Assembly: GCA_031286245.1 (NCBI GenBank)
Contig: JAITUO010000127.1
Span: 1-32,097 of the forward strand
Source: Coriobacteriales bacterium
GTDB lineage: Bacteria > Actinomycetota > Coriobacteriia > Coriobacteriales > UBA8131
Direction of reading: 5' to 3'
DNA length: 32,097 nt
A program made the translations under genes and the position numbers. Of the stretch, positions 7,872 through 23,897 are shown piece after piece. The stretch's first letter is position 1. Every line of letters begins with the position of its first letter. The notes under the pieces are model-generated. The model was not told the DNA's origin. It saw nothing but the letters and a program-made list of their open reading frames with translations, and searched no databases.

Positions 7872-8546
7872 TCAGTCAAGAGAGATAATCCGATCAGCCA
7901 TAGTTAGGACAGCAGGATCATGCGTGGCGATGATGATTGTCTTGCCATGAATTCTAGTTCCACAGAGGATCTTTAACACTTCATCACGGTTTTTTGGATC
8001 TAGAGAGCCGGTGGGTTCGTCAGCAAGAATTAGTTCGCTTGTTTGTACCAGCAGACAGGCTAATGCGAGCCGCTGTTGTTCACCGCCAGACAACTCGAAG
8101 ACTTTCTGCTTTTCTATTCCCTGTAGACCAACAATGCTGAGAGCCTCGTGTCGCTTCTGGCGGCGATCTCGCTTTGGGGTATCAGAATAACGTTGAGCCA
8201 GTATCATGTTTGCCTCAACTGAGTCCTGGTCAATTAAAGCAGCGTTTTGAAACAGGTAGCTGATCTTTTTTTGAAGGTAGCTCTGTGCTATGGAAGATCT
8301 GAGTTTAGGTGAAGGCCTACCAAAGAGCTGAAGAGTGCCGCTATCAGCTATGTCAAGCAAGCCGATGATATTCAGTATTGTCGATTTACCTGCTCCACTT
8401 CTGCCTGTTATTGCTACTATTTCCCCTTTTTTTACAGATAGATTGAGAGCATTCAGTACTTTTTTATCTCGGTATGATTTACTCACTCTTTCCATTTCTA
8501 CAACTGATTCGACACTCGCTTGTTGATAGGCTTGTGATTGATTCAC
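7872..8546 (-). CDS. ABC transporter ATP-binding protein (bacteriocin-locus partner)
   Basis: 224-aa ORF with Walker A GRSGAGKST, signature LSGGEQQR and Walker B LILADEPT. Its GTG start overlaps the TAG stop of the upstream membrane gene by 1 nt. Confidence 0.85.
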   Translation of the reverse strand: MNQSQAYQQASVESVVEMERVSKSYRDKKVLNALNLSVKKGEIVAITGRSGAGKSTILNIIGLLDIADSGTLQLFGRPSPKLRSSIAQSYLQKKISYLFQNAALIDQDSVEANMILAQRYSDTPKRDRRQKRHEALSIVGLQGIEKQKVFELSGGEQQRLALACLLVQTSELILADEPTGSLDPKNRDEVLKILCGTRIHGKTIIIATHDPAVLTMADRIISLD

Positions 8547-10828
8547 TAGAACTCTCCTTTTATTACACTCGGCATACGCCGGCTTTCAATGAACCTTAAC
8601 GCTAAAGCTGAAACCATGATTTCTATGGTAAAGACAATTCCCACCACTATTAAAGCATCAGTGGTATTCGCTATTGGTAGGTCAATCAAAAGTATTGGTA
8701 GACTCATCAAATTCAAAGCTACAGCACACAAGATAAACCATGTCATAATCGAATAGATAAAGTAGCTGCTGTGTCTGGTGAAAAATGGATATCCTAACAA
8801 CTTACGAATTATCACACGCCTGACTGACTCTTCAAACAGTATCGTAGCCGATTGCAATACGAGAACAACAAAGATCAACGAGATAATTAAAATTTTGACA
8901 GCGCTGCTTTGTATTCCTTGGTGCAACAACTGTAGTTCAGAAAGGGCATAGTCATTCAGGGTAACCAGGTGCAATAAATTGTCATCCAGGTGTAAATCAC
9001 GTAATAAACCGCCAAGCTCTTCCATGGTCTTTTTCGTATCACCATTTATCAGCTTCACTTTGATTCCGCAGCCAACATCACCAGTAATCCCATTAATCCG
9101 ATCAAAGGCTGTGCTGTTGTTTAGAGTCATGACTTCAACGATCTGGTTAACCAGGCAATTGCCATCTTCTGGAGCAATTGTAGGATTGTACGAGAATAGT
9201 CGTTGATCATTTGCTATCCAGATCAACTTGATACTTTGATTCTTTATACTATCTGATACCTCACGGCCAAACATCCGTTGCTCAAATTCTGCCAATGATT
9301 CTTGTTCTGAATCGCCGAATCTGTTTGTAGCGAAATAGTTCAGTATCGCTTCTTCATCTGCTTTATATTCAATAGGAACAAGCAAAATCCAGTCAGTTTC
9401 ATTTTCAGAGACTTTAATGGAATCACCGTCGATATCGAAGACAGGGTACACACTTAGATAATTTGGGTTAACTTGGACAGACCTGAAAGCACCCTCGGGT
9501 AAGCCTTGTTGCATTGACATTGGTTCATACATCCTCGCATTAACAAAGAGTGCTCCTCGTTCATTTAAAGCCGGATATAAGTCATATACCTCAGATGCTG
9601 TGGAGGCTAACTGACCATTGAGTGCCTCTTCCATGTCATTTCCGATACTCCTTGGATAAAAAAACCCGTATTGTGAGGTAGCCTGCCAGCTTCCAAGTTT
9701 TGCAGTTGCCTCTTTGGCTTCATGGAAAAGGGTCAGAGCAGTGATTGCGTTAAATATCAACACCAGACTTATGACAGACCTCACGCACAAATTCAACACG
9801 ACTAATGCAGCTGTGTCTTTACGATTCTTCAAAGCTTCCACAGGCCTCAGATTGTATAAATATGGCAAGGTAACCAGTGACAGAACTACGGTCACTATTG
9901 TAATTTGACAAGTACGTAATATGGTTGTGTAGATGAATTCGATACTAGTTCCAGGTACTAGTAGTGAAGTTATAAAGCTAATAATCATCAATCCAACCAA
10001 TGTGTAAATAATAGTCTGGCCTGTTATTAAGTACCAGACTTTTAAAATGCTGCTACCTTGTAGCAACATGACTGCTGCTCTCTTCGATTCATAGAACTGA
10101 TGATAGATTGTCAAGATTGTTATTGATATGACAAGCGACCATATAAATACCCAGTTCAATACTTGTGGGTCATCAGATACCGTTCTTATCATAAAATCAC
10201 TGCCTGTGAGTATCTCGTCACGTGTGAGTATAACACCTGCATCTTCTAATTCTTGTAAAAAAGCATCAATGAAGGTATTTAGTTGCTCTTGCTTTTCATA
10301 TTCAACTGTATAACGACCAGAGACTGGCAATGAACTATATACATTTTGCAGACCATAAATCGAAATCTCGTCATTCCGGCAAATATCTTCTATAAGCCCG
10401 ACTTGTAAAGCATTTCCAGTTGCTTTTGTGGACATGAAATATGAGCCGTTTTGTGTCTCATCCATGGAGAGGGGTTTTCCAACTCTAAGACGAAATGAAT
10501 TAAAAAAACTAGTCTGCTCGGAAGTGAGCAAAACGAAATGCGCTGTAAATGGTTTGTTGTTTTCGTCATAACCTGATGAAGTACGAAAAACATTGACATG
10601 AGAATCTAACGCACTGCTTTCTAAAGCAGAAAACACCAGAACTGGATCGTCGAGCAAAGGCCAGACAGGTAGAGTAAAACTCATGCCAAGATGATAGGTA
10701 GCCTCACTCATTTTTTGCTTTTCTGCTACATCGGCTGAGTAGAGAGAAACAAAGAAGGACATACTAATGAGTGCTGCCAGAAATCCAATGAGAACTCGCT
10801 TCAACATATCAAGCTTTAAGCCTTTCAT
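8546..10828 (-). CDS. Bacteriocin-associated integral membrane protein (DUF1430 / TIGR01654-like, FtsX-like topology)
   Basis: 760-aa ORF with an N-terminal TM, a large extracytoplasmic region, and clustered TM helices mid-protein and at the C-terminus. It sits between a lactococcin-972-like precursor and an ABC ATPase, as in the described Lcn972 operon. Confidence 0.7.
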   Translation of the reverse strand: MKGLKLDMLKRVLIGFLAALISMSFFVSLYSADVAEKQKMSEATYHLGMSFTLPVWPLLDDPVLVFSALESSALDSHVNVFRTSSGYDENNKPFTAHFVLLTSEQTSFFNSFRLRVGKPLSMDETQNGSYFMSTKATGNALQVGLIEDICRNDEISIYGLQNVYSSLPVSGRYTVEYEKQEQLNTFIDAFLQELEDAGVILTRDEILTGSDFMIRTVSDDPQVLNWVFIWSLVISITILTIYHQFYESKRAAVMLLQGSSILKVWYLITGQTIIYTLVGLMIISFITSLLVPGTSIEFIYTTILRTCQITIVTVVLSLVTLPYLYNLRPVEALKNRKDTAALVVLNLCVRSVISLVLIFNAITALTLFHEAKEATAKLGSWQATSQYGFFYPRSIGNDMEEALNGQLASTASEVYDLYPALNERGALFVNARMYEPMSMQQGLPEGAFRSVQVNPNYLSVYPVFDIDGDSIKVSENETDWILLVPIEYKADEEAILNYFATNRFGDSEQESLAEFEQRMFGREVSDSIKNQSIKLIWIANDQRLFSYNPTIAPEDGNCLVNQIVEVMTLNNSTAFDRINGITGDVGCGIKVKLINGDTKKTMEELGGLLRDLHLDDNLLHLVTLNDYALSELQLLHQGIQSSAVKILIISLIFVVLVLQSATILFEESVRRVIIRKLLGYPFFTRHSSYFIYSIMTWFILCAVALNLMSLPILLIDLPIANTTDALIVVGIVFTIEIMVSALALRFIESRRMPSVIKGEF

Positions 10829-10928
10829 GAACTGAGCGAACCGATAAATGTATGATCAATCGATTCGCTCGTAGACAGTTTATTGGTCAAGTGTTAAAAA
10901 CCATAGTAGGCGTAACCTGTATACTTTT

Positions 10929-11198
10929 TCAGATCAGTTGCACTAGAGTTTGACAAAAATTTGCTTCTGCCCAAACTTTCACGTTCTGTGGGCCTATTAT
11001 TACTGTCGATGAATGCCTTTTGCTTGGATGTACATAATTAGACCAAACAAACTTTTTATCGCCGCTTGTTTCTGTACCATAGTTCCATGTTCCCCCTTCT
11101 GGAGGATTCTTGACTGTAGCATAGACTGGGAGAGAAGCTCCTATGAGCAGACATCCCACAATGCATGAAGTAATTAGCAGTTTTAAAAACCTTTTCAC
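10929..11198 (-). CDS. Lactococcin 972 family bacteriocin precursor (C-terminus apparently frame-shifted; see findings)
   Basis: 89-aa ORF with RBS AAGGAGG and the Sec signal MKRFLKLLITSCIVGCLLIGASLPVYA. The mature part EGGTWNYG..WSNYVHPSKRHSSTV..VWAEA parallels Lcn972 EGTWQHGYG..SNYHHGSKTHSATV..VWAKA (recalled from memory). Confidence 0.8.
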   Translation of the reverse strand: MKRFLKLLITSCIVGCLLIGASLPVYATVKNPPEGGTWNYGTETSGDKKFVWSNYVHPSKRHSSTVIIGPQNVKVWAEANFCQTLVQLI

Positions 11199-11260
11199 AT
11201 TGCTCTGTTCACCTCCTTAACCATTTTGCGTGATACTCTGGTATCAATACTTATTGATGC

Positions 11261-11288
11261 ATATTAAACTATAGACTATACTATTCAA
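11261..11288 (-). promoter_or_regulatory. Putative sigma-70 promoter of the bacteriocin operon
   Basis: On the minus strand: TTGAAT (11288-11283), a 16-nt spacer, then TAATAT (11266-11261). The palindrome ATCAATAagTATTGAT lies downstream in the 5' UTR (about 11243-11258). Confidence 0.35.
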
Positions 11289-11466
11289 CCAACATCAGAT
11301 TGTTACTAAAATGAAATCACATAGATTCTATGAGGTGATGGTAGCTACTGACAAGCTTTATCCCAAATCCAAATTCTTGTATTATCGACATAACAGCCTG
11401 GGATTGTTTGATAATAGGAGCGTCCGAAAAAGTCAGCGAATTACCAACTCTAGGCAGGGAGCTGTC

Positions 11467-12366
11467 ATGACAGATGAACAGACTAGTCCAGAGCTTGATA
11501 CAAGTGGTTCCTTTGTGTCGCTCTCACCAAGCTTACCAACCCAGCTTAACCAGCCAGCCTCAGCCGCGCAGTTTGCCTCTCAGCCCGCTCCACTAGACCT
11601 ACCACCCCAACCTCCTGCCTCCCAGCCCATTCCGCTAGTCGTCCTCCAAGGAGTCTATAAGCGTTTTGGCAAGCAAGAGGTCTTGCGCGGAATCGACCTG
11701 GTGCTCCACGCAGGACAAATCACCGGCTTGCTGGGCCCTTCAGGAGCAGGCAAAACGACGATCGTCAACACCATCGTCGGCACATATAAACCATCAGCTG
11801 GCAGCGTAGAGGTGCTGGGAGAATCGGCTCCTTTGAAAAAAGCTCGCCGCCAACTCGGATACATGCCTCAAAGTGAAGCACTCTATCTCGACCTGACTGC
11901 TAACCAAAACCTGAGGTTCTTTGGGTCATTGTTTGGTATGTCAAAAAGCCACCTGAACCAAAACATCCCTCTGGTGCTAGCCCTGGTCAACTTGGCAGAC
12001 GAAGGTCGTAAACTGGTAGTGAATTTCTCTGGTGGTATGAAACGGCGTCTCTCCTTAGCCATTGCCCTGCTCCATGATCCGCTGTTGCTGGTGCTGGACG
12101 AGCCAACTATAGGATTGGATCCCAAACACCGCATCGAGCTCTGGCATGGTTTCCGCAACCGAGCCAATGCCGGAGCTGGCCTACTCGTCACCACTCACGT
12201 CATGGACGAGGCTGCATATTGCGATCGCTTGTTGATGGTCCAAGACGGTAACATCATCGCCGATGGCACCCCTGCTGAGCTCTTATCCACAACCAGAACT
12301 GCTAACCTTGAAGAAGCCTTCCTGGCGTTTGACAACAGATCCTGGGAAGGAGAAAACCATGCGTAA
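11467..12366 (+). CDS. ABC transporter ATP-binding protein (ABC-2/DrrA-like)
   Basis: Walker A GPSGAGKTT, signature FSGGMKRRL and Walker B LLVLDEPT. I prefer ATG 11467 (MTDEQ) over the track start 11311. A P/Q/S-rich ~58-aa N-terminal extension precedes the NBD. Confidence 0.85.
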   Translation: MTDEQTSPELDTSGSFVSLSPSLPTQLNQPASAAQFASQPAPLDLPPQPPASQPIPLVVLQGVYKRFGKQEVLRGIDLVLHAGQITGLLGPSGAGKTTIVNTIVGTYKPSAGSVEVLGESAPLKKARRQLGYMPQSEALYLDLTANQNLRFFGSLFGMSKSHLNQNIPLVLALVNLADEGRKLVVNFSGGMKRRLSLAIALLHDPLLLVLDEPTIGLDPKHRIELWHGFRNRANAGAGLLVTTHVMDEAAYCDRLLMVQDGNIIADGTPAELLSTTRTANLEEAFLAFDNRSWEGENHA

Positions 12367-13950: not shown

Positions 13951-16900
13951 ATGATAAGGTGTATTCTTTCTAGTGAGAATCATTCCCGCAAACAAAAAAA
14001 GACAGGGAAAAGAAAACGACTTCTAAGGATTGTTATTGCCAATCTTATGGCAATTAACATCACCTTGGCATCTCTATCTGATGTCATGTTAGTAGTCAAT
14101 GCTGACGCGGCTACTGTCGAAAGTACAGCGAACACTAAGCCTGAGACAGACACCAACGAATCAAATAGTGCAGCGCCAGACTTAATTGATGAAACAGTCT
14201 TGCAGCCTGATGATGCTGATACAAGTGGAGAAACAATCAAGCCTTTGGATAACCTTGACGACCCTGACATCCCTGACGACCCTGACGACCCTGACGACGC
14301 AGAAGATATCTCCCAAATGAATGTGTCTATAAATCCTTCCAGCTTTGTAACATGGACTACTCCCGATTTTGTGAATCGACTGAATGTAACTATTTCTGCT
14401 GTTATTTCCGAACAATACACCAGTGGCGGCAAGATCGAATTGCCTCTGGATTTGACACCGACATCTGTGTCACATCCTAATCTTACATATGGAACAAATG
14501 GCAGCGACGGAGTCAATGGTACCAACACCCCTGCTTTTTTCATTCTTAATAGTCCAATGCTTGATGGGTGGATCGCAGATTCTCGCTATAACAAAGTCGT
14601 CGAGAATTATGATTTAGTTTCTAAACCTGGTTTTGTAATCTTTAATCTAAAAAGCTGTTCTGATCCCGGTTTTCAATCTGGGCTTATTAATATACCTCTG
14701 GTCTTTGATTTTAATACACAGTGGCTGTATTGCATACCTGGCGGAACAGTGCTTTTTAATGTCGCACCTGTAGCCTATATTAACAACCTCGAGGTAGCAA
14801 AAGCCACCGTTGCTCCAGTCACCAGTAGTGCGAGTAACGATATCAGTCTCAGTTCGATCGAACCAGCGAATCCCGTTTTCTCCAATAACCCAGCTGGCTG
14901 GAAAACTTCCTCAAGCATTAGTGACTTTGTAATAGCATCGGAAAAACCAGTCTATTTCACCAGTTCAGACCTGCAAGCTTTTTGTTTTACGATTACGTTT
15001 ACTCTGCCAAATGATGTCAGCAGCTATCAGAGCCTGCGTGTTGAAGACGCTTTTCCTAGTAGTATCTTGGCTTTCGCAAATGCGACCCTGACAGTCGATG
15101 GCATATCAGTTGCCACACCGATAGTTGATTCTTCGGTGGCTGGTAGAGTCAGTTTTATACTCAATGCTCAGGAGTTATCTGAATATGCTGGACAGGCAAT
15201 CGAATACACACTGGTATTTGGTATTCCAGCCATGGCATCAGGTCATATAACTAATCATGCTGCTCTCTACATTTCTTCGCTCGATGGCTTAGAGCCTGAT
15301 TCACCTGATGCTGAATACCAGCTAATTGTCTATAACGTTGCAGGCATCACTGACTTTACTAAGACCCACTCCGGGGCTTTTAGCGCAATTGATGATGCTA
15401 TCTCCTTTACAGTAGGCTTTAACCTGCCAGAAGACGCGACAGGCTTCACCGGTATCCTGATCAGCGACAAGCTACCAGATACGCTGGACTATTTATCCGC
15501 TATAGCTGTCATCAAGGGCAACCCCGAGGTCAGTCTGGCGACCAGCTATGACAACTCTGCAAGACGAGTTACTGTCTATATCTCTAAAGACCAGCTCGTT
15601 GCCCATGCCGGAGCAAGTGTCGTCATCACCTTAAACACCAAAGTCAACAGTAGTTGGGTATCAGGCTCTATCACCAACACTGCTTTGGCCTTCTACCAGT
15701 ACGGGCCGACCCCACCAGACCCAGACATCGATGACCCCGACGAGGAAGACGAAATCACAGTTCCAAGCGAAAGCATCACAGACCTTATAAAGACTTATTC
15801 CAATTCCTTCATTGATATCGGTGATGCGATCAGTTTCAAGCTGAGCTTTACTATCCCGGTGACGGTCGACAAACATCAAGGTCTGCTTATGGTTGACAGT
15901 TTGCCTGCCACTCTGACATACATCTCAGCCTCAGCGACTATCGGTAGCAGTGCTCTTACTCCATCGATAACTTCTGGCACGATTGCTCTTTTCATCGACA
16001 AAACTACCTTGGAAACCCACACTGGCGATTTAGTCACTTTGACTATCAACACTACTGTCAGCCCTGCCTGGGTTAGTGGGGCAATCAGTAACACCGCCTA
16101 TTTGTACTCCCAACCCAGCTCTGCCCCACCTGACCTGACTCTAGACCGACCGATCGCAATCACCCATGTCAGCGTGCCAAACACACCTATTCCAGTCACT
16201 TACACCGTCACCTATTCACCGGGCAGTCATGGTACCTTTGCTGCCCGCTCATACAGCGGCCTCGCATATGGGACTTCTACCCCAGCAGCTCCAAAAGTGA
16301 CTGGACAAGCAGGTTGGCTGTTTACAGGCTGGTCGCCTGCTCGCAGCAGTACAGTTACCAAGAATGTCACCTATACAGCACTCTGGGCCCGAGTGACGAC
16401 TCCATCGACTTACACAGTTCAATTCATTGATTGGGACGGCACTCTGATCAAGAGTCAGCCGGTCGTCGAAGGTGGCAGTGCAACAGCACCACCCGATCCA
16501 ACTCGTGAAGGATACAATTTCACTGGCTGGAATCAGCCTTTTAACTATGTTACTAATAACCTGACCGTGATTGCTCAATATGTGGAGAAGCCCGTGATCG
16601 AGCCGGAACCGGAGCCTGAGCCTGAACCAGAATATAAGCCTGAACCAGAATCTAAGCCTGAGCCAACCGATCCCGCAACGCCACCTCAACCGCAGCCTAA
16701 AGCAGTATGGGGATTCTTAAACCTGGTCATGGCGATTACCGGAGCACTGTTACCCGGTTTTATCCTCTTTAGTTTGATGCGATTCAGGCACAGAAAAAGA
16801 AGTGAGATCAGTAAAGACTACAGGGTTGTTTTCCGCTTTGTCTGGCTCTTTGTGGCAATTCTGCTTGGCGCATGCGGAGTTGTATTCCTGATACTGACAG

Positions 16901-17046
16901 AGGACTATAGTAATCATTTTGCCTTGGTTGATCAGTGGACGTTGCTCTGTGCCGCTATCCTTGGCGCAGAGGCTGTCGCCCTGATCATGGCCTCTCGCCG
17001 CCGAGGTAAAAAGACCAAGCAAGTCGAAGACTCAGATGAAGCATAG
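13951..17046 (+). CDS. Large cell-surface adhesin-like protein: signal peptide, three pilin/Cna-B/DUF11-like modules, two Listeria-Bacteroides (Flg_new) repeats, a PE linker and a three-helix membrane anchor
   Basis: 1031 aa, with a signal-like N-terminus (KQKKTGKRKRLLRIVIANLMAINITLASL..VNADA). An acidic DPD repeat follows (4 x 9-bp units at 14260-14295). Three paralogous modules (about 14914-15285, 15343-15705 and 15772-16116) share F.V.F.LP...D.LP.TL.Y...TLNT.V...WVSG.I.NTA. There are two YTV.F/Y...GW...Y/W repeats (16192-16386 and 16405-16584) and a PEPEPEPE linker (16591-16698). Three hydrophobic helices lie at 16702-16995, and there is no C-terminal LPXTG. Confidence 0.75.
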   Translation: MIRCILSSENHSRKQKKTGKRKRLLRIVIANLMAINITLASLSDVMLVVNADAATVESTANTKPETDTNESNSAAPDLIDETVLQPDDADTSGETIKPLDNLDDPDIPDDPDDPDDAEDISQMNVSINPSSFVTWTTPDFVNRLNVTISAVISEQYTSGGKIELPLDLTPTSVSHPNLTYGTNGSDGVNGTNTPAFFILNSPMLDGWIADSRYNKVVENYDLVSKPGFVIFNLKSCSDPGFQSGLINIPLVFDFNTQWLYCIPGGTVLFNVAPVAYINNLEVAKATVAPVTSSASNDISLSSIEPANPVFSNNPAGWKTSSSISDFVIASEKPVYFTSSDLQAFCFTITFTLPNDVSSYQSLRVEDAFPSSILAFANATLTVDGISVATPIVDSSVAGRVSFILNAQELSEYAGQAIEYTLVFGIPAMASGHITNHAALYISSLDGLEPDSPDAEYQLIVYNVAGITDFTKTHSGAFSAIDDAISFTVGFNLPEDATGFTGILISDKLPDTLDYLSAIAVIKGNPEVSLATSYDNSARRVTVYISKDQLVAHAGASVVITLNTKVNSSWVSGSITNTALAFYQYGPTPPDPDIDDPDEEDEITVPSESITDLIKTYSNSFIDIGDAISFKLSFTIPVTVDKHQGLLMVDSLPATLTYISASATIGSSALTPSITSGTIALFIDKTTLETHTGDLVTLTINTTVSPAWVSGAISNTAYLYSQPSSAPPDLTLDRPIAITHVSVPNTPIPVTYTVTYSPGSHGTFAARSYSGLAYGTSTPAAPKVTGQAGWLFTGWSPARSSTVTKNVTYTALWARVTTPSTYTVQFIDWDGTLIKSQPVVEGGSATAPPDPTREGYNFTGWNQPFNYVTNNLTVIAQYVEKPVIEPEPEPEPEPEYKPEPESKPEPTDPATPPQPQPKAVWGFLNLVMAITGALLPGFILFSLMRFRHRKRSEISKDYRVVFRFVWLFVAILLGACGVVFLILTEDYSNHFALVDQWTLLCAAILGAEAVALIMASRRRGKKTKQVEDSDEA

Positions 17047-17244: not shown

Positions 17245-17985
17245 ATGGGTGATGAACTTGGTCGGCTTCTACGTGAAGTCGACCGCAAAAAGATGGAAAT
17301 GACCGAAAGACCAGACCCTGCTCCGGAGGCACAGGAAGCCTATGAGGAGCGGTTTTTATTTGAGAGTGTCTATTTCAACAACACCATGGAAGGCAACCAA
17401 CTGACCTATGAAGAGGTTGAGGCTGTCTTGAAAAATGATCTGGTGATCGCCGGTAAGCCACTTTCTGACCACATGTCCCTGGTTGGTTACCGTGATGCCA
17501 TGCAGCTGGCTCAGCAATATGTCATCCAGAATCGGCGGATTGGCGAGCATGAGCTTTTACGTCTGCATTCCCGTATATTGATTGATAAACCGGAAATCGC
17601 TGGTGAGTATCGGCTCTATAACCTGATGATCAAAGGCCATCGTCCTACCTCCTATGAGAAGATCGGCACGAAAATGCACCAATTGGTGGAGAAGCGTGCG
17701 CCAGAGTATGCTCATCCGGTTGAATCGGCTGCCTATTTCCATCTTCGTTTAGAGAAGATCCATCCGTTCGGCGACGGTAATGGCCGCGTCGGACGTTTGA
17801 TCATCAACATCATGCTGGAGCAGGCTGGATTACCTCCAGTGATCATTCGTGAAGGAGACCGCCAGGAGTATTATGAGGCCTTGAATGCCTATGACGGTCT
17901 GGACGGCAATCGACAGGTCTTGCCGATGCAGCTGCACCTGGCTGGACTAGTCATCCGCCATATCGATGAGATCACAGCATTGTAA
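17245..17985 (+). CDS. fic: Fic/DOC family protein (probable AMPylase)
   Basis: 246-aa ORF with the canonical Fic motif HPFGDGNGRVGR. The N-terminal helix carries NNTMEGN, which resembles the (S/T)xxxE(G/N) auto-inhibition motif with Asn at the first position. Confidence 0.9.
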   Translation: MGDELGRLLREVDRKKMEMTERPDPAPEAQEAYEERFLFESVYFNNTMEGNQLTYEEVEAVLKNDLVIAGKPLSDHMSLVGYRDAMQLAQQYVIQNRRIGEHELLRLHSRILIDKPEIAGEYRLYNLMIKGHRPTSYEKIGTKMHQLVEKRAPEYAHPVESAAYFHLRLEKIHPFGDGNGRVGRLIINIMLEQAGLPPVIIREGDRQEYYEALNAYDGLDGNRQVLPMQLHLAGLVIRHIDEITAL

Positions 17986-21836: not shown

Positions 21837-22436
21837 TCATTTAATCGGGAACTCTCCAATGATTGTTTTTCCATCTTCTTTATAGACAGGGATAGTTCTG
21901 TCTAGCGGCTTCCATATCACTAGTAGAACCTTAGTAGCAAAGCTCTCCGTTTGGTATCCTTCTGGTAAGAAGTCAATCAACAATGCCTGCCTTTCAGGGC
22001 TGAGATATGAAAAAGTAGGTCTATATGTGCAAAAACTTACTTCGTGAAGCAATCTATCGACTTCAGACGCATCCAGCTCGACTCCTGTCTGTTCAAAGAC
22101 GTACTTAATAAAGGTCTGGATCCCAACGTTGTAGTAGTTGTCCCAGAAAGCCTCGATTTCCTCAGGTGTTTTTGGGTCGATAGCCAGCATCTCATCTCTT
22201 GATATATAACCGATCTCGCCATTGGTGGCTTTTACTTCAATCAAGTCAGGGCCTTGTTCAAAAGCTATACCGTTATTGTTACCATATGTCTGACCATTCT
22301 CGTTGACCGGATGTAGGCTTGCTTGGTCGCTGGCAACAACTGGTATAGGCCGGGATAAGGCTAAGCCAATAGCAACCAGAAGCACTAAGCAAACTACAGA
22401 CACCGAGAGAGCTGTAATTAATTTGTGTTTCTTCAT
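21837..22436 (-). CDS. Hypothetical membrane-anchored/secreted protein
   Basis: 199-aa ORF with an N-terminal signal/anchor MKKHKLITALSVSVVCLVLLVAIGLAL followed by a soluble domain. I do not recognise the family. Confidence 0.6.
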   Translation of the reverse strand: MKKHKLITALSVSVVCLVLLVAIGLALSRPIPVVASDQASLHPVNENGQTYGNNNGIAFEQGPDLIEVKATNGEIGYISRDEMLAIDPKTPEEIEAFWDNYYNVGIQTFIKYVFEQTGVELDASEVDRLLHEVSFCTYRPTFSYLSPERQALLIDFLPEGYQTESFATKVLLVIWKPLDRTIPVYKEDGKTIIGEFPIK

Positions 22437-22464
22437 AGCACACTCTTTTCCTTTCGAATCACTG

Positions 22465-22720
22465 TTAATAGATTGTAGGTGATTTGGCTGGATACTTATA
22501 ATACGTAGACCCTGAATAGGTTACTTGTACATACCCTTGACAATAATACCCTGCGGGATTAGATGGGGTGCCATAAAAGACTATTCCATAATAAACCCCA
22601 AGTGGGACAGTAGAGCTGTTAGGAACCATTGGAGATGAACCAACACAGTAGGTTGTTGTTTGTTTGGTTTCCTGATGAGTTACGAAAGCGCCAAAACTGA
22701 CATGACATTTCTTTGTCCAT
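22465..22720 (-). CDS. Split small ORF pair: a 33-aa ORF (22619-22720) overlapping a 54-aa Tyr/Gly-rich ORF (22465-22629)
   Basis: RBS AGAGGGAAAGAG lies 8 nt upstream of ATG 22720. The Tyr-rich frame (..GVYYGIVFYGTPSNPAGYYCQGYVQVTYSGSTYYKYPAKSPTIY) is open from 22767, but its first ATG is 22629. It ends 28 nt upstream of the 199-aa gene. Confidence 0.25.
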
Positions 22721-22812
22721 AAGCACCACTCTTTCCCTCTTTGTGTTTCTTCCCTCGAGGTTCTCTTCTACTAGCTAACTACGGTGTTCTCTTCATATTA
22801 ACTATTAATGAG

Positions 22813-22841
22813 AATCTAACTACAAAGCAATTATGTGTCAA
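22813..22841 (-). promoter_or_regulatory. Putative sigma-70 promoter for the small-ORF / 199-aa transcription unit
   Basis: On the minus strand: TTGACA (22841-22836), a 17-nt spacer, then TAGATT (22818-22813). Confidence 0.4.
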
Positions 22842-22853
22842 GCCAGTAGCTTA

Positions 22854-22903
22854 ACACTTACCTAGCTCGGTAGTTTGACTCGGTAGTTTGACACTTACCT
22901 AGC
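22854..22903. repeat. Nested direct repeats A-B-B-A upstream of the promoter
   Basis: acacttacctagc at 22854-22866 and 22891-22903, and tcggtagtttgac in tandem at 22867-22879 and 22880-22892. Confidence 0.9.
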
Positions 22904-22928
22904 CACCCAAAGTATTTCATAACCCCAT

Positions 22929-23291
22929 TTACTGGAGGATTTTCTCTTTTTTTCTGTCAAATAAGTTCTCCTTTGTAGGCCTAGTGGTAGGCCACAGCAT
23001 CCCTTTTGTACTCATCAGTGAACTTTTTTGGATTCCCATGTCAAACACTTTTTCTTTTGTGATGTCCAGTCTAGTCGTTTCTAACCGACCAGCTAGCTAT
23101 CTATACGTAAAGGTGTATTCCTGATGTCCTTTTTTCGAGGGTAGTCCAAGTCCACACAACCTAGCTTTCATCACAGTCGTGACTCCATCGAGGCACACTT
23201 GACTGTGGTATTTGCCACTTTGTCCATCATCCGTACTATTGAAGCCGCTACCAATCTCAGCACCAAGAGGTTTCTCAATACGCTTGTCCAT
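22929..23291 (-). pseudogene. Remnant of a DDE transposase, IS30-like (C-terminal half only)
   Basis: The minus-strand frame reads ..STDDGQSGKYH..LPSKKGHQEYTFTYR*LAGRL..RPTKENLF. This parallels the IS30-family T.DNG.EF..H / ..RG.NE..N.LLRQY / ..tP.E.F blocks as I remember them. The frame is broken by in-frame stops and the N-terminal domain is missing. Confidence 0.35.
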
Positions 23292-23556
23292 CTAAGGACA
23301 GGTGTGATCAACGTCAATGGTAAGCGAATGAATGTCGAGCTAAGACTGACAGCACAGGCAAGAGAAATAATCAGTAAGCTTGACAGTCTAAAATGTGGTT
23401 CCTGATTTGGTTAAGCCGGGAGCTTACCAAGCAGCCATGTTGCCAGTAGCCATGCTGCTTATTTGCTTATCCTTATTCAAGCCCCAATAGTGGTGGGTGG
23501 TGGTGTAGGCCTCCTTGGTACACTGCCTGGATACCTATGCAGAATGAGGAAAGTGT

Positions 23557-23694
23557 GTTTTGCTAAAAAAGGCGCGCTGTGTGCTCTCATTATGTCGAAT
23601 ACAGCTAAATACGATTGAATTATAGGGGTATTTCAGAAAAATCCCATAAGATTTCAGTGAATAAGTGCACACAGCGCGTCTTTTTTAGTAAAAC
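23557..23694. repeat. 28-bp inverted repeat (two G:T-type mismatches) enclosing an 82-nt loop
   Basis: gttttgctaaaaaaggcgcgctgtgtgc (23557-23584) pairs with gcacacagcgcgtcttttttagtaaaac (23667-23694). Both mismatches become G-U wobbles in a plus-strand RNA. Confidence 0.9.
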
Positions 23695-23813
23695 GTAGCA
23701 TTCTCAAAATCACTGGATGGCTGTCTGTTAGAGAACCTGGCTATAAGAATGCAGCCCGGTTTTCTCCACATAAAGCTTTTGAGCATTTTGGTGTGGAATT
23801 TGATGTTTTTCTA

Positions 23814-23842
23814 TTGACGAGAATCGAAAACTGTGCTTATAT
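23814..23842 (+). promoter_or_regulatory. Putative sigma-70 promoter of the GntR-ABC operon
   Basis: TTGACG (23814-23819), a 17-nt spacer, then TTATAT (23837-23842). Confidence 0.5.
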
Positions 23843-23843
23843 G

Positions 23844-23873
23844 GTTAGGGAGTTAAGTCGTTAACTCCCTAAC
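23844..23873. promoter_or_regulatory. Perfect 13-4-13 palindrome, probable YtrA/GntR autoregulatory operator
   Basis: gttagggagttaa gtcg ttaactccctaac sits immediately downstream of the -10 element and 25 nt upstream of the GntR start. Confidence 0.5.
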
Positions 23874-23897
23874 ATAGTCATAATAAGAGGAGCAGTT

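Follow-up and report, generated by a model that had tools for sequence, protein, structure and literature searches.

Why does a bacteriocin gene of the lactococcin 972 (Lcn972) family stop short of its family-typical end, when that end can be read in the -1 frame directly behind a slippery-type heptamer? This question is raised by a three-gene operon in a metagenome-assembled genome (MAG) of a Coriobacteriales bacterium, which we analysed within a stretch of 32,097 nucleotides, hereafter the window. A preliminary description of the window, made from its letters, had left four answers side by side: a homopolymer sequencing error, a recent inactivating indel, a phase-variable tract and programmed -1 ribosomal frameshifting. 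The features that the argument needs are the following.

11212 to 11218, minus strand: Shine-Dalgarno-like AAGGAGG, read from the sequence, 13 nt upstream of the GTG start
10929 to 11198, minus strand: zero-frame ORF of an Lcn972-family precursor (PF09683), with a premature end and the non-homologous tail CQTLVQLI
11118 to 11198, minus strand: probable Sec signal peptide MKRFLKLLITSCIVGCLLIGASLPVYA, from sequence reading and from alignment with homologues whose leader ends in PAFA before TV
10954 to 10962, minus strand: junction AAATTTTTG, one base short of all homologues in the DNA alignment; it includes the heptamer A_AAT_TTT (10962-10956)
10894 to 10953, minus strand: -1 frame continuation SNSSATDLKKYTGYAYYGF and TAA, recognised by a homologue-only profile, by identity at 13 of 20 positions to P0002 (locus L001) and by the ending YAYYGF-stop, as in locus L108
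10834 to 10870, minus strand: intergenic 12-bp hairpin between the bacteriocin and DUF1430 genes, from folding
8546 to 10828, minus strand: intact gene of a 760-aa bacteriocin-associated integral membrane protein (DUF1430/TIGR01654)
7872 to 8546, minus strand: intact gene of a 224-aa ABC ATP-binding protein (PF00005, 109.6 bits), the third gene of the operon

In the zero frame, the bacteriocin ORF starts with GTG, ends with TGA (10931-10929) and encodes 89 residues, which read MKRFLKLLITSCIVGCLLIGASLPVYA and then TVKNPPEGGTWNYG..VKVWAEANFCQTLVQLI up to the stop, the last of them being ..VWAEANFCQTLVQLI. The Pfam profile PF09683 (Lactococcin_972; cut-off 22) matches this form with 53.6 bits (E = 3.3e-14), and the form in which the frame is restored with 54.9 bits. 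The narrower NCBIfam profile TIGR01653 stays below its cut-off of 32.1 with both forms (23.6 bits in the zero frame, 25.9 restored). Judged from the Pfam match, the gene is an Lcn972-family precursor. The leader consists of a K/R-rich start and a hydrophobic core followed by VYA-T, which aligns with the AFA-T of the homologues, and its cleavage is predicted before TVKNPPEGGTW. The 89-aa form keeps this probable signal peptide as well as the invariant core GGTWNYG..S.Y.H..H. However, no single frame encodes the complete mature domain: the zero frame spans positions 2-43 of the 62 positions of PF09683, and the frame breaks at or before the conserved residues W82, Y98 and [WY]99, which 73, 71 and 81 of the 86 homologues have. 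An AlphaFold2 model built on a five-row alignment was unusable (pLDDT 45), and the structural mapping used here rests on sequence alignment to the Lcn972 structure 2LGN.

In the -1 frame, the reading is (L)SNSSATDLKKYTGYAYYGF up to a TAA at 10896-10894. With this tail restored, the coverage of PF09683 is extended to positions 2-62 of 62. To score both C-termini, we used a profile from which the window itself was absent. We scanned genome and metagenome collections and obtained 105 related loci with 86 distinct mature domains, and 84 of the latter entered this homologue-only profile, the disrupted L040 and L055 being left out. The core scored 73.5 bits and the zero-frame form 73.1 bits, so that the zero-frame tail costs 0.4 bits, whereas the -1 tail gains 11-13 bits (84.8 bits when the frame is restored with T, 86.9 bits with G). 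When 200 shuffled tails were scored on the same profile, the mean was 72.0 (sd 1.9) and the maximum 81.6. A search with the restored protein further retrieved three uninterrupted homologues, whose ends WSNASATAAKKYTGYTYY.., WAKADISGDKKYTGYAYYG.. and WSNASVSGPSGDTAFTYWATY align with the -1 tail. Identity to L001 is as high in the tail (65%) as in the core (66%), and the tail is 50-55% identical to those of L003-L006, while the family averages 22% over this segment. This lack of decay behind the break implies that the event is recent. These alignments identify the -1 tail as what was ancestrally the last third of the mature bacteriocin domain.

The sequence-level part of the preliminary description therefore stands. 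Its coordinates and readings of the ORF, the run and the -1 frame all proved correct on re-reading, and its assignment of the gene to the Lcn972 family is borne out by the PF09683 match above cut-off. It had also expected an aromatic, family-typical C-terminus in the -1 frame and had proposed to align both ends with the family profile; the gain above all 200 shuffled tails and the identical YAYYGF-stop of L108 agree with that expectation. Likewise, one extra base does yield a precursor of about 101 residues, and the homologues measure 101-103 aa.

Two bases are candidates for the one that was lost. The minus strand carries AAATTTTTG (A3T5G) at 10962-10954, corresponding to A5 on the plus strand at 10955-10959. 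In the DNA alignment, AAT TTT TG- TCA of the window faces AAT TAC TGG GCA in L108, AAT TAT TAG TTA in L109 (alike in L110) and CAC TGG TCA in L001. At the junction, 73 of the 86 homologues have a Trp (TGG), as do 26 of the 28 whose cores are at least 50% identical, and alignment to 2LGN places a Trp here in Lcn972 itself (AGVWAKAT). With a G put back (TG to TGG), the protein reads ANFWSNSS and regains the conserved Trp; with a T, it has Leu, found in three of the 86; the profile score favours G over T by 2.1 bits. Given the prevalence of Trp, the lost base may be the G rather than a T of the run. On the other hand, mutational bias would favour a loss from the T run, and on the alignment either base may be the missing one. 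The earlier statement that one extra T restores the gene thus holds for the single extra base, but that base need not be a T, and G fits about 2 bits better. The conserved Trp shows that a frame break beside a homopolymer need not originate in the homopolymer.

The state of the toxin gene differs among the related operons, which we located by searching with the 760-aa membrane protein and then examining the contigs of the nearest relatives. In L108, the closest syntenic operon (membrane protein 54% identical), the bacteriocin gene is an uninterrupted 103-aa ORF ending ..NANYWADADAYGGTGNIAYAYYGF, with the same terminal hexapeptide YAYYGF and the same stop position as the -1 frame of the window. 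L109 and L110 are two independent assemblies of the same sequence, in which the membrane protein is again 54% identical and the DUF1430 and ABC genes are intact. Upstream of these genes, a heavily decayed Lcn972 pseudogene occupies L109:400-550 and L110:187-337. Here the signal peptide runs directly into ..AGSIFGSQNPK; then the frame changes, and KDWADANY-stop-LNTLATDSD-stop-YTIYAYYGF follows. An internal deletion has removed the N-terminal domain and joined the leader to the C-terminal third, and one of the two in-frame stops is a TAG at the conserved Trp codon. Within this operon clade, the toxin gene is accordingly intact in L108, freshly broken in the window and far decayed in L109/L110, and the putative immunity genes are present in all three.

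Scans of genome and metagenome contigs and a protein search for close relatives returned none above ~59% identity, and no conspecific genome with the gene intact was among the hits; an exact search for the ABC ATPase of the operon gave no match. The polarity, which would run from intact to broken, is deduced from relatives that are only 51-59% identical. Elsewhere in the family, an independent frameshift of an Lcn972 gene is found in the complete genome of Dactylosporangium sp. CA-233914 (L040:3000-3260), a few codons upstream of the same point, with ..SSNVKVQGAAERR.. in one frame and ..QNAGIWANADTSCGVGQSTAAYWNNA up to the stop in the next. The family gene of L055 is truncated after ..WSHYVH.

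Bacterial programmed -1 sites, such as those of dnaX and the IS3-family transposases, combine A_AAA_AAG with a hairpin or pseudoknot, to which a Shine-Dalgarno sequence upstream may be added. Like these sites, the window has an X_XXY_YYZ heptamer in the zero frame (gcA AAT TTT tgt, 10962-10956), as the preliminary description had correctly read, and a -1 ORF that is open, meaningful and homologous up to the family stop position; if shifting were programmed here, A_AAU_UUU would direct the synthesis of an 89-aa and a 101-aa form in a fixed ratio. Furthermore, A_AA.U_UU.U is of the type H_HH.U_UU.Y, for which efficient shifting was measured in E. coli with the IS3 pseudoknot placed after the motif; motifs that lack a stimulator shift at ~0.1% (PMC4066793). 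Unlike the dnaX and IS3 sites, the window has neither a stimulatory element nor a conserved arrangement. A stimulatory hairpin or pseudoknot would be expected 5-9 nt downstream, yet the 86 nt and 51 nt that follow the site fold no better than shuffled sequences (z = -0.12 and -0.80, with pseudoknots outside the explicit search), and by eye no Shine-Dalgarno-like element was found in GTGAAAGTTTGGGCAGAAGC upstream of the heptamer. The sole strong hairpin (10834-10870) lies ~85 nt 3' of the heptamer, too far for frameshift stimulation. In addition, a slip at the heptamer gives Leu at the position of the conserved Trp, so that the ancestral protein would not be recreated. At this site, all of the ~86 distinct homologues can be read without a shift, the closest syntenic gene being uninterrupted, and equivalent heptamers are ordinary in the window (33 in the 8845 codons of its intact ORFs, four of them A_AAA_AAG). 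With no stimulator, so many other heptamers and no homologue in need of a shift, programmed recoding is not supported, and we regard it as highly improbable; the event is most likely an ordinary gene inactivation. There is a slight chance that the deletion is real and yet some ribosomes slip by -1 at A_AAU_UUU, releasing a trickle of full-length bacteriocin with Leu for Trp. If so, such a leaky 'pseudo-pseudogene', or compensatory frameshifting, would tune the toxin output rather than abolish it. Transcriptional slippage was rejected as a further candidate, because a run of five U would be too short for it.

An error of sequencing or assembly would mean that an intact 101-aa gene has merely had one base dropped, the T of a T6 run or the G of TGG. 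The undecayed tail is what a truly intact gene would show, the record is a MAG and the site includes a 5-nt homopolymer. However, a Logan assembly of SRR14710892 (L112, 1952 bp) is 100% identical to positions 9942-11893 of the window, including A3T5G; it encodes the same 89-aa product and is a member of the P0001 cluster. This identity excludes an assembler or polishing artefact and, barring a systematic error in the reads, a sequencing error too; if L112 derives from the sequencing run of the MAG, as it may, the identity leaves room for such a systematic error. Moreover, in the 23 long ORFs that make up 83% of the window, all 83 other homopolymer runs of at least 5 nt are in frame, 20 of them being at least 6 nt long. 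Most of the housekeeping genes (rpe, priA, def, fmt, rsmB, glpX and others) match their Pfam profiles from end to end, and signs of breakage are seen in no other gene of the 32 kb. The in-frame runs and the end-to-end matches indicate an assembly that is not indel-prone; together with the identical L112, the runs make a sequencing error unlikely, and we infer a mutation rather than an error at the level of the reads. Slippage of the T run that switches bacteriocin production on and off within the population would account for a break at or beside a homopolymer and for the restoration of the frame by one extra T. Nevertheless, tracts that vary at useful rates are typically at least 7 nt long. 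The T5 run is shorter than these and is T5 in both available assemblies; 26 other T5-T7 and 47 A5-A7 runs in the window are in frame, and the ON state would carry Leu at the conserved Trp position. The comparison of tract lengths proposed earlier found relatives with no T run at the site (TAC TGG, TAT TAG, CAC TGG), and we consider such a contingency tract even less probable than programmed recoding. The least probable reading takes the 89-aa product as a naturally shortened variant that is functional, for instance as a decoy or signalling peptide. It does retain the signal peptide and the invariant core, but its zero-frame tail has no homology and it has lost about a third of the mature domain, mapped to residues ~46 to 66 of Lcn972 (2LGN). 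The W..Y[WY] segment is kept in the homologues, and none of the ~86 ends near the same point; the possibility raised at the outset, that orthologues share the short end, is thereby answered, L108 included.

We therefore favour, as probable, a real and recent 1-nt deletion that has turned the bacteriocin gene into a pseudogene within an otherwise intact operon and left a non-producer with its putative immunity genes kept. Among the options listed initially, the recent inactivating indel best fits the frame break, the undecayed homologous tail, the intact partner genes and L112. The deletion would have affected the codons of Phe81 and Trp82, as AAT TTT TG[G] TCA or AAT TTT T[T]G TCA. Zero-frame translation would then yield an 89-aa precursor that retains the signal peptide together with the N-terminal two thirds of the mature domain. 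This domain is a beta-sandwich, built in Lcn972 from two three-stranded sheets (PMC7476776). Since the truncated product would lack the conserved Trp and the aromatic Y-[W/Y] C-terminus, we infer that it is inactive.

The linked genes bear no such damage: the toxin ORF is disrupted relative to its homologues, while the membrane-protein and ABC genes are intact. TIGR01654 matches the 760-aa protein with 221 bits (cut-off 189) over positions 9-666 of 681, and P0006 and P0007 are 54% identical to this protein across 99% of its length. The 224-aa length and the position of the ABC ATPase are the same in L108, L109 and L110, and the order bacteriocin, TIGR01654/DUF1430 protein, ABC ATPase recurs in these three loci and in L111. 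The DUF1430 and ABC genes of Lcn972 loci are commonly assumed to be immunity and transport genes. If they are, the cell would be a non-producer that keeps its protection.

Between the bacteriocin and DUF1430 genes, the hairpin at 10834-10870 folds with -19 kcal/mol (z = -3.4), none of 200 shuffled sequences folding as well, and has no T-tail; a terminator scan around the bacteriocin gene found none. A comparable GC-rich intergenic hairpin is present in L108, where the toxin gene is intact, and there is none in L109, where it is decayed. The hairpin may stabilise or attenuate the transcript and so set the ratio of toxin to immunity expression. The GC content of the operon (7872-11300) is 0.415-0.43, whereas the flanks, with housekeeping genes (priA upstream; def, fmt and rsmB downstream), have 0.47-0.53. 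This lower GC content suggests that the three-gene operon is a horizontally acquired islet. A serine recombinase and a PemK toxin adjoin the operon copy of L108.

The window resembles the Lcn972 operon of Lactococcus lactis (lcn972, TIGR01654/DUF1430, ABC ATPase; structure 2LGN) in its PF09683 family and its three-gene layout. The precursor shares a probable Sec-type leader, the conserved GTW..G, S.Y.H, H and W.A motifs, and the aromatic C-terminus. An active bacteriocin of this family would be expected to act against bacteria by binding lipid II and inhibiting the septum. In contrast to the lactococcal case, the host is a Coriobacteriales MAG and a 1-nt deletion puts the last third of the domain out of frame; the match to 2LGN is also distant (E = 0.12), and TIGR01653 remains below cut-off.

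Loss of the toxin gene from such loci has precedents. In Streptococcus pneumoniae, 27.5% of the genomes keep scbBC without the Lcn972-like scbA, so that the bacteriocin gene is lost and the predicted immunity and transport genes are kept (PMC11796350), as in the window and, more extremely, in L109/L110. In pneumococcus, however, a deletion has taken the ComE-dependent promoter along with the gene (PMC11796350), whereas the loss in the window is a single-base frameshift with the promoter region, the ribosome-binding site and the intergenic hairpin still present. The pneumococcal loss concerns part of the population. In clade II of Cutibacterium acnes, the Lcn972-domain gene alone is deleted (PMC4746626). 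Here, as in the window, a host of the Actinomycetota has lost the toxin gene and kept the rest of the island, but by deletion of the whole gene and with other accessory genes.

Several further features of the window were recorded. Divergent from the bacteriocin gene, an ABC ATPase ORF (11311-12366, plus strand) is followed by an ABC-2 permease; it carries a P/Q/S-rich N-terminal extension of ~110 aa, and its ABC_tran domain begins at residue 125. From the sequence, its true start may be an internal Met (..GAVMTDEQTSPE..). The product of 13951-17046 (plus strand; 1031 aa) has DUF11 and Listeria-Bacteroides repeat domains and is likely a cell-surface protein; a Fic-domain protein follows it (17245-17985). 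The ~1.4 kb at 22437-23897 contain no ORF of at least 90 aa and no Rfam or tRNA hit, in line with the Rfam and tRNA scans of the whole window, which returned no hits. A 54-aa Tyr/Gly-rich ORF (22465-22629, minus strand) lies just upstream of a 199-aa ORF (21837-22436, minus strand) with a hydrophobic N-terminus and no Pfam match.

In the public record, the bacteriocin gene appears as an intact 76-aa bacteriocin (MDR2957249.1, P0001) with no frameshift flag. The start given there is an internal GTG inside the hydrophobic core of the signal peptide, whereas the GTG at 11198, 13 nt after AAGGAGG, gives what looks like a normal Sec-type leader, which aligns with the homologues. With its start mis-called and its frame broken, the gene would lead genome-mining pipelines to count a producer where there is probably none. 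The locus is a divergent member of the Lcn972 family, ~55% identical to its nearest relatives, that appears to have been caught just after the inactivation of its toxin. It would add one more example, of small biological weight, of a bacteriocin that is lost while the linked genes commonly taken as immunity genes are kept.
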